Shown one piece after another: positions 3,282-59,893 of a stretch of 64,000 nucleotides of DNA. The DNA is from Octopus vulgaris (lineage: Eukaryota), in contig OX597820.1 in the NCBI GenBank assembly GCA_951406725.2, positions 84,320,001 through 84,384,000 on the forward strand, read 5' to 3'. The stretch's first letter is position 1. The number at the start of each line of letters is the position of its first letter. The notes under the pieces are model-generated. The model searched no databases. It saw only the letters and a list, made by a program, of their open reading frames with translations, and had not been told where the DNA came from. Made by a program: the position numbers and the translations under genes.

Positions 3282-4382
3282 TTATTGCTTATTTAGCTTG
3301 GGTTCGAATTTATCAATAAAATTCTTTTCTCTGATTTTCCTCTCGATTTCACTTGGGCTGTGTAATTTGTAGAATGGAAATATTATATATATTTTCCGAC
3401 CACATGTTGCTAGGTGGTTACTCAAAGGTATCTGACGGACCTCTGGGTCTCTAATCTGTTGCCGGTGTACACGTGAGCGTTCTAATAGTGCGTTTCCCGT
3501 CTGACCTACATATATTTCTTCACAATTTGGGCATTTGATGCAGTAAATTAAATTTCTGCTTTTGCAGTTCATATTCGCGTTTGTGAATATTTTCCCGGTT
3601 TTTGTGTTTATATATTGACCGGTATGTATGAATTGGCATGTGCCACATCGGCTATCATTGCATTTAGATACCGTGAATGTTTGGTCTTTGTTGCTGAGGT
3701 CAAAGTTTGCCTTTGTTAGTAATGTTTTCAAGTTTTTAGGCTGTCTTTTACTAAGCACCATAGCTCGATCCTTGATTATGTCTTTTAATTCATTACTTTG
3801 GGCAATGATTGGTAGGTTTGCTTTGGCAATGTTGAAGATATTCTGGTGACATGGGTTGTGTGTCACTATGAATGGTATGACTTGTTCTTGTTTTCCTCTT
3901 CCTTGGGTTGTCCTAAGTTGTTGTATAGGTATTTTTATAGCCCGCTGTATGCCATTTTCTATAAGTAGAGATGGGTATTTTTGTTTGAGCAAAAATTCTC
4001 TTAGTTCTATTAGGCGTTTGTTCCTGATATTTGCATCTTCTACAATAGTACAAATTCTTCTGGCTAGGCAGTATGGGATGTTACGTTTTGTATGTGGTGG
4101 ATGGCACGACTTAAAATTTAGGTATTAATGTGTGTCTGTGTGTTTATAGTATATATCTGTGGTGATGGTGGTGTCTTTTTTAATTACCATTATATCCAGG
4201 AATGGTAATTTGGTACTACTCATCTCCTTTGTAAATTTGAGAGATGGGTGTAGGTTGTTCAGGAGGATATTGAACTCTTCCAGAGTATTTAGAGATTCTG
4301 TCCAGATTATGAAACAGTCGCCTAGGTATCTCTTCCATGCCTTTTCAATATACTTTCTAAATCCAGTGCCATAGTTTACCAT
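3282..4382 (-). pseudogene. PLE reverse transcriptase/GIY-YIG ORF remnant
   Basis: ORFs 4125-4382 and 3282-3992 are in one frame, split by a TAA at 4125-4127. Catalytic YLDD reads YLGD. N-terminal RT is missing. Confidence 0.9.
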
Positions 4383-4386
4383 AGTT

Positions 4387-5506
<1,120 letters not shown>

Positions 5507-38561: not shown

Positions 38562-38949
38562 TGTGTATGTGTGTCTATATATGTATATGTGTTTTGTGTG
38601 TGAGTGTGTATATGCGTCTAGCGTATGCGTGTGTGCTTGTGTGTGCATGCATAGGTATAGGTATACATGCTCAAATTTTTTCAGAGTAAATAATTTTTTA
38701 GAAATGTTCCAAACAGCTATCGTTGCAAATATTGATACCTTTTCATAGCCAAAACCTAATTTCAACAATCATATTTTAAAATGGTTACTCCAAGTTTCAG
38801 TACCTACTTTAGTTATACTTTCATTATGTTTAATTATGTACTAAATATTATCGATGTATCAAATATTATCAAAGATGCGATATGTGAAAGTGTATATTAC
38901 AAATGATTTCTAGAATCTAAGTTATTTACATTTGACGAATATGTGCCCT

Positions 38950-39662
<713 letters not shown>

Positions 39663-55819: not shown

Positions 55820-56292
55820 CGGTTTCAAATTCTGCACAAGGCCAGCAATTTCGTGGAACTGGATTCAGTCGATTACATCGCCCCCAGTGCTCAACATATA
55901 CTTATTTTATCGAGTCCGAATGGATAAACGGCAAGGGCGGTCCCAACGGAATTTGAACTCACAACGTAAGGACTGGAAAAATACCCGAAGACATTTTGCT
56001 TGGCGTGCTAAAACTTTTTGCAGTAGGAGCAACATATTTCTAACATATTCCACAGATGTCACACAACATGATATAACATTATACTATCAGCCGAAATACT
56101 GATTTCAGCACAGGACCATCAATTTCGGGAAAGGAGTTAAATTGGGTATATCGACCGCAGTCTTCAACTGTTACAGTCTTGCGAACATGAATGGATGAAA
56201 GGCAAAGTAGACTTCGGTAGAATTTGTACTCGGAATGTAAAGACGGACGAAATATCTTTGAACATTTTGCCAGCTCGCCGCCCTTATCAGCC
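55820..56292 (-). mobile_element. Two tandem SINE family B copies
   Basis: cacaaggccagcaattt...gtcgattacatcg...gaatttgaactc...ttttgccagctcgccgcc is the reverse complement of family B. Confidence 0.78.
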
Positions 56293-57774: not shown

Positions 57775-58202
57775 GATAGCAAGAAATTCAGAGGTGAGTG
57801 GTACTAACCGATTACAGCACATTAGTGCTCAAATAGTACTTATTTCATCGACCCCGACAAAATGAAAGGCAAAGTCATGTCCGGCAGATTTTGAACTCAG
57901 AATTGAAAAATGAACGAAATGTCGCTAAACATTTTGTCTGGCGTGTTAAGGTTTCTGCCAGCACACTGCCTTAAATTTTTATATAATTGTTTTAAATGTT
58001 AGCACAAGACCAGTATTTTCTAGGAGGGAGTATGTATTTGTAATCGACCGTATTGCTAGGCTGGTAATTTTTTTATTGACTCCCGAAAGAATGTAAGATA
58101 AATTCGATCTCGTTAGAACAGGAATTCAAAACGTGGACCTGTATGAAATGCCGCCACCTATTTTCGTCGGCGTGGTAAGAATTCTGCCTTGGCGCCGCCT
58201 TA
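57775..58202 (-). mobile_element. Two tandem SINE family B copies
   Basis: atcgaccccgacaaaatgaaaggcaaagtc...tttgaactcagaa...tctgccagc; second copy at 57998-58202. Confidence 0.75.
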
Positions 58203-58949
58203 AATCTTTTTATAGTGAATTCCACTTTTGCTTTTGTGAGAAATGGAATGTGAAATATAAGTGATGAAATATAATCCTGCAGGATTGCAATCTTAAAAAT
58301 TGTTAACCATTCTGACTGAATATGAAAAATCGAATTAAATGCAATTAGTCTAAACGTCGATTTATTACACTACTTTGATATAATTCTGAAGACTTTTCGC
58401 TATATAAATGGAGAAAAGTGAGTGTGCTATAATCCTTGATACCCTTCTTTTAGCAAAATTATCAGAAATGCTGGTGCGTGGATCTTCAAGTTTCCTCAAT
58501 AAATTACGCATAGAAACGAAGCGATGTTGCGTTCTTTAAGGCCGATATAAACGCATCAACATGCCAAATAATCACTTGAATAATATTGTCGTTTTGAGAT
58601 CTATAAAAATGTAGGTTCACTGTAAGTTTAGCATTACGTTAATCACAGGGTAATTTTATTTTCAGTCGCCCCCACCACCGCGGCAGTAAATATAAATGAA
58701 ATATGATAAAATTTTAACATTCAGGGTTTGTATATACACAAAAATATTGTGTTGTTTTTATAAATATATTTACATGTATATTCGGCTTGATTATGAAACA
58801 TATGTAAGACTGGCTCTGAATATAGCCGCTTCGCTACCATATGATTTTAACTTAATTTCTTTCTTTCATGGGGAATATCGTCATATATGAAATGGAACAA
58901 AATATTTACATTAGTTTTAATGATATTAAATTACATATTATTTCCATTA

Positions 58950-59893
58950 GACCGATATTTTTCCTCATCTTGTTTGTTGTTAACACAACGATTCGGCTGA
59001 TATACCCTCCAGGCTTCATCAGGTGACTTGAGGTAATTTCGCAACTGGGTTCTCATTCCTAAGGTATATTTCGATGTTACTATTATTATTATTATTGTTA
59101 TTTTTCAGGTCACTGCTTGGAATCGAACTCGGAATCGCAGTGAATTTTAGGGCTTATAAATCTAATATTTTGCTATCTTCCTTATTACCAGTTCCATTAT
59201 ACAACTCATATTTGCAGACGGTGTGCTTAGGGTGTTTTTATGTCTTAGCATATGTGCTGTATCTTAGTTTTCGTATTTTCCAGTGGTGTTCTCTGCCCAT
59301 AATTTTAACTTCATCCCACATATTGATGCGGCCCCCGCTTTCTCACACATGTTCAGCTATACCCGATTTATCAATATGGCCTCATTGATTCAGAGCTTTG
59401 AGATGTTCGTTTACCCTCATTTTGAGGGGATGTCATGTCTGGCCTGTGGGATAAAGTTAAAATAATAGACAGGGAGCAACACTAGGAAATACGGAAGCTA
59501 AAAGAAACAGCACATATGCTAGGACACATCAACCTCCTAAGCAGACCGAGCGCATATATGAGTAGCATATGGGAACCGGTATTAAGGAAGGATAGCAAAA
59601 TATTAGATTTATACACCCTAAAATTCACTCCGTAATTGCCCACGAGCATATGGCGTAGTGGTAAACCCAAGATTTCGAGTTCGATTTCAAGCAGTGACCT
59701 GAATACTACTACTAATAATGATAATGAATATAATAATATCGAAAAATACCTTAGGAATGTGAACACGGATTCAAAATTCTCCCAAGACACCTGACGAAGG
59801 CTAGAGCGTATATCAGCCAAATCGTTGTGTTAACAAACAATATGAAGACAAATATCCGTCGAATGAATATAATGTAAATAATATTATGTACAT
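58950..59893. mobile_element. Head-to-head inverted pair of truncated Penelope-like elements (GIY-YIG end, tRNA-like module, AAT tract, hammerhead)
   Basis: Minus arm: GQT*HPLKMRVNEHLK...KSGIAEHV...WDEVKIMGREHHWKIRKL. Plus arm: WDKVKIIDREQH*EIRKLKETAHM. Both end in the same HHR-bearing tail as 38950-39662. Confidence 0.85.

Follow-up and report, generated by a model that had tools for sequence, protein, structure and literature searches.

The element considered here is a Penelope-like element (PLE) of Octopus vulgaris, two damaged copies of which form an imperfect palindrome in a 64,000-nucleotide stretch of contig OX597820.1 (positions 84,320,001 to 84,384,000 of the forward strand, hereafter the window). 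Several described systems share parts of its organization. The anole Poseidon element PAc (Frangieh et al. 2024, PMC11167929) has, like the octopus family, one open reading frame (ORF) for reverse transcriptase (RT) and GIY-YIG endonuclease (EN), a pseudo-long terminal repeat (pLTR) with a hammerhead ribozyme at the ORF start, and two 3' ends approximately 30 nt apart, its reverse transcription starting 111-118 nt into the ORF. For Poseidon it has been shown that initiation is internal, that the ORF starts at the hammerhead and that cleavage is dispensable, with two initiation sites bounding the tail (PMC11167929). Unlike the octopus family, PAc is not described with a tRNA head or a link to RNA polymerase III (Pol III).

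The TRIMp3 elements Cassandra, Helenus and Ajax (Kojima 2024, PMC10886601) resemble the family in carrying within the terminal repeat a small-RNA-derived Pol III promoter, devoid of a functional tRNA fold, which gives the start of the retrotransposed RNA. They differ from it in being non-autonomous long terminal repeat elements of 311-1,263 bp with a primer-binding site and a polypurine tract, whereas the octopus family is a coding PLE that, at 2.7 kb, exceeds twice their length; the paper makes no mention of Penelope, and TRIMp3 membership was rejected because an 835-aa PLE ORF is present. In the schistosome Sm-alpha and Sj-alpha repeats (reviewed in PMC6765202) a Pol III-type promoter is likewise followed by a hammerhead, yet these are non-coding tandem units without an ORF, in which a canonical hammerhead defines the RNA ends. 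Finally, the short copies of the family resemble tRNA-derived short interspersed elements (SINEs, class SINE2) in having a tRNA head, in starting approximately 13 nt before the A-box and in being copied by another protein; unlike in SINE2, head and tail are here both parts of an autonomous element, and the copies have an inverted partner, an optional 30-nt tail and no poly(A).

Compared with these systems, the octopus family belongs to a known PLE clade, but its tRNA-derived head at the inferred RNA start and its Pol III-terminator-free coding strand appear to be new. The literature search, which found no description of a PLE with a tRNA or Pol III promoter, did not extend to Repbase, Dfam, subscription journals or supplements, and these may hold a family consensus. 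Oligo(dT) acts as a Pol III terminator when it stands on the non-template strand (PMC10498592), and the sequence presents what is expected of a type-2 Pol III unit, namely A- and B-boxes at tRNA spacing and no oligo(T) on the non-template strand. Since a tRNA-derived head with these boxes is located upstream of the start codon and no TTTT follows, it is, judging by sequence, rather probable that the full-length autonomous element is transcribed by Pol III. In an initial annotation of the palindrome, an internal promoter of Pol III type had already been proposed to lie upstream of the ribozyme; it is still the best reading, and was strengthened by the mapping of 5' ends and by the TTTT counts described below. 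The annotation did not include a further point, which is that the terminal repeat is also the 5' end of the element, with the hammerhead located inside the first codons of the ORF.

The majority sequence of the family is a unit of 2,724 nt, whose 835-aa RT-EN ORF starts at an ATG behind an AAT tract, in the order head, (AAT)n, ATG, hammerhead (coding), RT, GIY-YIG, stop, and head again. Nucleotides 209-2724 of this unit are covered in a single alignment by one locus (L371), and another (L031) retains a 569-aa open frame with an RT domain that matches PF00078 at E 2.7e-6, just under the curated cut-off; the family ORF also gives weak profile matches to TERT and other RTs. Translated from this ATG, the ORF can be aligned with homologue P0003 over aa 11-287 (46%), a range that spans the hammerhead. 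By eye, and from protein sequence, the N-termini of P0003, P0029 and P0119 apparently encode a hammerhead core in their first codons too. No direct Pfam GIY-YIG match was obtained for the EN region, which is 37% identical (E 8e-21) to the PF01541-positive (GIY-YIG) region of protein P0069 and shows CCHH-type Cys and His positions in alignment A1. The same alignment, inspected by eye, contains no extra Zn-finger linker between RT and EN; such a linker, taken in our membership criterion as a trait of Neptune and Nematis, is present in a Neptune-type family. The pLTR, partial tandems, an inverted 5'-truncated partner and an optional 30-40-nt tail are all present, inverted 5'-truncated partners and the optional tail being described PLE features (PMC8557442, PMC4209133). 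By these sequence tests the family is placed among the EN+ PLEs of the Penelope/Poseidon clade. It is abundant, with 5,895 candidates in the 2.8-Gb genome and matches in runs under five organism labels, and all 30 loci retrieved with a distant PLE protein belong to it. Exact 30-mers were counted 7,774 times for the family 3' end and 623 times for the ORF end, and 360 kb of neighbouring and arbitrary genome stretches contained only 3 family loci, a number too small for statistics.

The initial annotation had regarded the tRNA-like module as an integral part of the terminal repeat. This was borne out in two samples of ORF-anchored copies, where part of the head (A- or B-box) is found approximately 25 nt after the ORF stop in 26 of 30 and 29 of 30 copies, i.e. 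55 of 60, the second sample holding a few near-duplicates. A full-length reconstruction with the module in all copies had been suggested as a check; the majority unit was obtained, and the head proved to be present in most rather than all copies. The head is colinear with tRNA genes of this genome, best with tRNA-Arg(TCG) (z 8.5; 36 sequences), an alignment that covers 7 isotype labels and does not settle the source isotype, and its A- and B-boxes stand at tRNA spacing. It does not fold as a tRNA, no cloverleaf with an acceptor stem being formed (z +1.8), and a functional tRNA gene was rejected because of this and because neither ARAGORN (in the window) nor Rfam gave a tRNA match.

These copy counts bear on an account in which the main element is an independent tRNA SINE whose tail derives from Penelope, the copies with head and ORF being secondary chimeras. 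Short copies are indeed several-fold more numerous than ORF copies, and 4 of the 30 copies in the first ORF-anchored sample lack nearly the whole head. For these four a head-less ancestral subfamily was considered, deletion being the simpler explanation, and frequent deletions across the region can account for them: 27 deletions of at least 5 nt were counted in 4.7 kb from head to hammerhead (copies L161-L190), roughly five times denser than elsewhere (0.97-1.15 per kb in the ORF, 0.74 per kb after the hammerhead). A deletion cluster confined to the head was discarded as partly a query artefact, an unbiased count spreading it from head to hammerhead, and nicking by the element's endonuclease of its own ATT-rich repeat is possibly behind these deletions. 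Moreover, 50 short and 89 long copies have the same majority sequence and share both common polymorphisms, with no fixed difference, and are therefore not separate lineages; divergence is approximately 5% at non-CpG sites in both. The supposed tail is the N-terminus of the ORF itself, the head occupies one fixed place in the 55 of 60 copies, and no SINE with unrelated 3' flanks, the outcome that would have contradicted the initial annotation, occurred among 30 head-anchored copies whose 3' flanks were read. Considering the head's presence in ORF-anchored copies and the lack of diagnostic differences in short ones, SINE2 membership was rejected, and the independent SINE is the most improbable of the accounts weighed here. 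Other mobile elements are often found inserted in the AAT tract, separating head from hammerhead, as in L107, L114, L115, L127, L133, L138, L144 and L150.

For the mapping of the 5' end, a 37-nt head motif was matched exactly in the genome and the first 70 of its 462 occurrences were used, an exact-match anchor that favours young copies. Of these copies, 58 end in the 17 nt that precede the anchor, at most 15 nt before the A-box, and the commonest end point, shared by 16 copies, lies 14 nt before the A-box T; ten of the others extend into the ORF and 2 reach 8-38 nt past the boundary. The truncation rate within the ORF (17 ends in 9,650 nt) would lead to an expectation of approximately 3% of ends at the head boundary. 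None of 30 matches anchored at the 3' end (three pairs being counted twice) reaches the ORF. The 3' ends of insertions cluster approximately 122 and 151 nt after the ATG and do not coincide with the hammerhead cut site. Copies that start at this 3' site and run to the end of the RNA would map its 5' end, and they place it at the head. The terminal repeat is the 5' end of the element, and the head stands at the inferred 5' end of its RNA. A search with the N-terminal ORF body returned 30 loci, 6 of which run from the repeat into the body, and in L236/L401 1,176 nt are unbroken from the head into the ORF body, the DNA upstream being unrelated and without endonuclease. In two short copies (L112 and L276), 29-33 nt of ORF-body sequence are joined just upstream of the head, which suggests a template jump on full-length RNA.

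A sharp 5' boundary could also arise if the head were not a promoter, either through RNase P-like cutting at a tRNA mimic or through fold-back of the cDNA at the GC hairpin with which the head begins. Several junctions are fold-backs on that hairpin (L101, L113, L118, L120 and L129 have 5' junctions with 18-23 bp palindromes centred on it), and an inverted neighbour accompanies 37 of 60 short copies. We consider this account improbable, as the head does not fold as a tRNA, many 5' ends, including ones beside unrelated flanks, fall 3-7 nt upstream of position +1 of the tRNA, and the absence of TTTT would be left unexplained.

The TTTT test was fixed before counting. The 2,724-nt unit contains no run of four or more T and 13 runs of exactly three, together with 31 A runs (AAAA) and 9 C runs, and four ways of shuffling give P values of 0.004-0.03 for zero TTTT. 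As controls, 57 ORF stretches were taken from 80 related PLE loci, 23 having been dropped for length. TTTT is present in all 57, at an observed/expected ratio of 1.40, from which 6.1 occurrences would be predicted for the unit (P 0.002). The observed/expected values of TT, TTT and TTTT are each below those of all 57 controls, and AATAAA is ordinary (31 of 57 controls being as low). The absence of GGGG from the ORF was discarded as a signal, being unremarkable (19 of 57 controls likewise). The depletion extends to 62 single decayed family copies, in which 52 T runs were counted in 99.8 kb vs 217 expected. The young and equally A-rich Neptune-type PLE of the same genome has a 2,328-nt ORF with 9 T runs and lacks A/B boxes, and in 340 kb of arbitrary genome the longest gap between TTTT runs is 1,463 nt. 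A T run of at least 4 was seen by eye within 40 nt downstream in 19 of 22 tRNA genes examined (of 30 loci). At the related PLE loci, TTTT occurs within 130 nt upstream of 16 of 20 hammerheads and no A/B boxes were found within 300 nt of these 20; a regular expression for the A/B boxes gave 4 matches in the 80 loci, none at hammerheads. In other organisms, motifs resembling A/B boxes precede two fragments of related PLE ORFs (L301:2473 and L367:429, both +); they are probably flanking SINEs.

The counts also bear on an account with two promoters, in which Pol II, from the repeat or by read-through from the host, would make a capped mRNA, the captured head would drive only short Pol III RNAs, to be copied by the enzyme of the element as SINE-like passengers, and the missing T runs would reflect general avoidance of U runs or TT. 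A LINE-like, TATA-less internal promoter is reported for the Penelope of D. virilis (PMC2377424), TT words are low in general, translation would need no new biology, and the pile-up of 5' ends would be explained equally well. What this account leaves unexplained is the absence of TTTT over 2.5 kb of ORF while 57 relatives and a PLE of the same genome keep it, given that short RNAs would need only approximately 260 nt free of T runs, and likewise that a full-length copy also starts in the head. We regard the two-promoter account as unlikely, though considerably less so than the alternatives discussed above.

Several observations weigh against transcription of the whole unit by Pol III. The tested unit is a majority sequence, whereas the controls are single sequences, some of them closely related; when shorter stretches were compared initially, TTTT was missing from 1 of 46 controls, and at one control locus 2.9 kb beyond the ORF range that was matched are free of TTTT. 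Depletion of TTTT ranks third among the 256 4-mers, behind GACG and TTAC. A synonymous null shows low values also for the remaining TT words and for poly(A) signals (2 vs 6, P 0.03), so that part of the TTTT signal is general TT avoidance. Continuity from head to ORF body is shown by one copy only (L236), the head forms no cloverleaf, and the family is old, so that an active copy may not exist. Approximately 17,600 RNA-seq reads on a long copy (10,029 and 7,564 from two runs of poly(A) type, about 6% of each having been read and the species match being uncertain) fall on both directions alike, without pile-ups at start or end. In four other runs, RNA contigs extend over ORF, head and tail with no step in depth between ORF and head, a depth that is confounded by the CpG-decayed reference, is not a copy number and cannot rank the parts. 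Known Pol III retroelements are at most approximately 1.3 kb long and non-coding (PMC10886601). Translation of an uncapped RNA is a further difficulty, the roles of the AAT leader and of a circle in it being proposals.

If the whole unit is indeed transcribed by Pol III, its cycle may proceed as follows. TFIIIC and Pol III would start approximately 13 nt upstream of the A-box, read the entire unit and stop at the first T run in the flanking DNA. The uncapped RNA would be translated from the ATG behind an unstructured AAT leader, either as linear RNA or as a hammerhead-ligated circle, the latter idea following a proposal in PMC4209133. The enzyme would nick AT-rich DNA and prime reverse transcription internally, just past the hammerhead, as anole Poseidon does in vitro. 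Priming in the 3' repeat would generate ORF-bearing, randomly truncated copies such as the arms in the window, whereas priming in the 5' repeat would run off at the head, as would priming on a short Pol III RNA made from a solitary repeat, and generate SINE-like copies of 240 nt; a second priming or a fold-back would add the inverted partner. To the complete scenario, in which a tRNA promoter was captured, all terminators were purged from an 835-codon ORF, an uncapped 2.7-kb mRNA is translated through its AAU leader or as a circle, and tens of thousands of SINE-like copies result, we assign about even chances.

In a recent review the Pol III transcriptome is called universally short and non-coding (PMC10498592), and Pol III has been argued to limit retroelements to approximately 1 kb (PMC10886601). 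A coding element of 2.7 kb adapted to Pol III would contradict both statements, and would raise the question of how an uncapped RNA is translated. It would also mean that the RNA start of a PLE, located so far for very few elements, had been mapped from DNA alone, and would show how an autonomous element can give rise to SINE-like parasites from within.

As for the palindrome, it represents one Penelope/Poseidon element inserted twice in inverted orientation and now dead, which is ordinary for PLEs, in which pairs of hammerheads on opposite strands 100-700 bp apart, with an unpaired base before stem II, have been described (PMC8557442, PMC4209133). BLAST detects the inverted repeat at 58920-59887 (E 2e-133), and the arms (59320->58902 against 59445->59907) are identical in 344 of 413 ungapped columns, or 83%, so that the imperfect palindrome of the initial annotation is real. 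Its spacer, put there at approximately 125 bp and interpreted as the longer 5' part of the minus copy, is 124 nt and has that nature, the arms abutting with a 6-nt overlap (Table 1). The order proposed for each arm (endonuclease C-terminus, tRNA-like head, AAT tract, hammerhead) was recovered, but the module is complete in neither: the minus arm has no A-box, and the plus arm, whose A- and B-boxes start where they had been placed, has lost 17 nt between them. No clear target-site duplication can be read at the locus, the ends of which are AT-rich. In the window ARAGORN predicted no tRNA, and Rfam found no tRNA or hammerhead in the window, in the arms or in one intact family copy, its only matches being microsatellite-driven miRNA ones; the calls of tRNA head and hammerhead thus rest on family alignments.

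Table 1. Features of the palindrome and of a related insertion in the window (window coordinates).
Feature	Position	Strand	Basis or remark
Minus arm, 512 nt; PLE 3' end, copy truncated at its 5' side	58937..59448 (59448->58937)	-	86.8% to family majority
Plus arm, shorter 5'-truncated copy, 440 nt	59443..59882	+	90.1% to family majority
Inversion junction, 5' ends of both arms overlapping by 6 nt	59443..59448	.	alignment to family majority
Decayed GIY-YIG endonuclease C-terminus, about aa 740-831 of 835 (aligned: aa 731-831), stops and frameshift	59168..59448	-	tblastn E 3e-23
Decayed endonuclease C-terminus, aa 780-835	59444..59611	+	86% identity, E 1e-22
tRNA-derived head; A-box 59651-59661, B-box 59677-59686; inferred RNA start near 59638	59638..59701	+	
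B-box half of head (B-box 59130-59121)	59106..59136	-	A-box half gone, 56-nt deletion
(AAT)n tract of plus arm, part of inferred 5' leader	59702..59738	+	
(AAT)n tract of minus arm, limits approximate	59074..59105	-	
ATG opening the family's 835-aa ORF; stop as next codon in this copy	59757..59759	+	
Same ATG in minus arm; aa 1-34 readable as far as 58955	59054..59056	-	
Minimal type-I hammerhead, doubling as ORF N-terminal codons; G12>A (59819), A15.1>T (59822); likely inactive	59787..59830	+	
Minimal hammerhead of minus arm; A15.1>T (58991); likely inactive	58983..59026	-	
Sister insertion of this family: two short copies in inverted orientation (39225->38922, 39201->39662), their junction lying within the head	38922..39662	.	

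The family hammerhead has a CUGANGA + GAAA core, an unpaired base before stem II and a palindromic minimal stem III, as expected of type I. All 11 core positions are intact in 87 of 176 family copies and in neither arm of the window, and no RNA-seq read of the two runs ends at the cut site. The extra A after A9 pointed out in the initial annotation is a family trait (185 of 188 copies), while the 'RAAT' core given there is a product of decay, the family core being GAAAC-GUU and the plus arm carrying G12>A in addition. The A15.1>T change noted in both arms is confirmed; it occurs in 3 of 179 sampled copies, two of which are these arms. The single template suggested by this sharing is supported by 43 inverted pairs, whose arms have the same allele in 20 of 20 cases at one common polymorphic site and in 33 of 40 at another (0.49 and 0.56 expected, respectively) and have 44 other minor alleles in common vs 15.7 expected; the pair in the window shares 4 minor alleles vs 0.9 expected. 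The template of these arms thus already had a damaged ribozyme core, in agreement with the in vitro insertion that hammerhead mutants of Poseidon still perform (PMC11167929). Self-priming through the fold-backs at the head-start GC hairpin is a possible route to the inverted partner. The palindrome had also been put forward as the likely parent of the element located near 39 kb of the window; this claim did not survive, the arms of that element being without A15.1>T and the palindromic copy being truncated and damaged, and the two are sister insertions rather than parent and descendant.

Elsewhere in the window, positions 3909-4397 (minus strand) hold an RT fragment of the different, very young Neptune-type PLE family. 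This family (L435, G000:C1:27841500-27851400) has 1,101 candidates with copies that are 100% identical, and a regular expression found no hammerhead in it. Its 4,271-nt tandems are perfect and contain a 775-aa RT-EN frame, upstream of which a 454-aa frame is located. Two copies of another short repeat, 76% alike, are located at 56195-56269 and 57862-57936, and we take this repeat to resemble a known octopus tRNA SINE.
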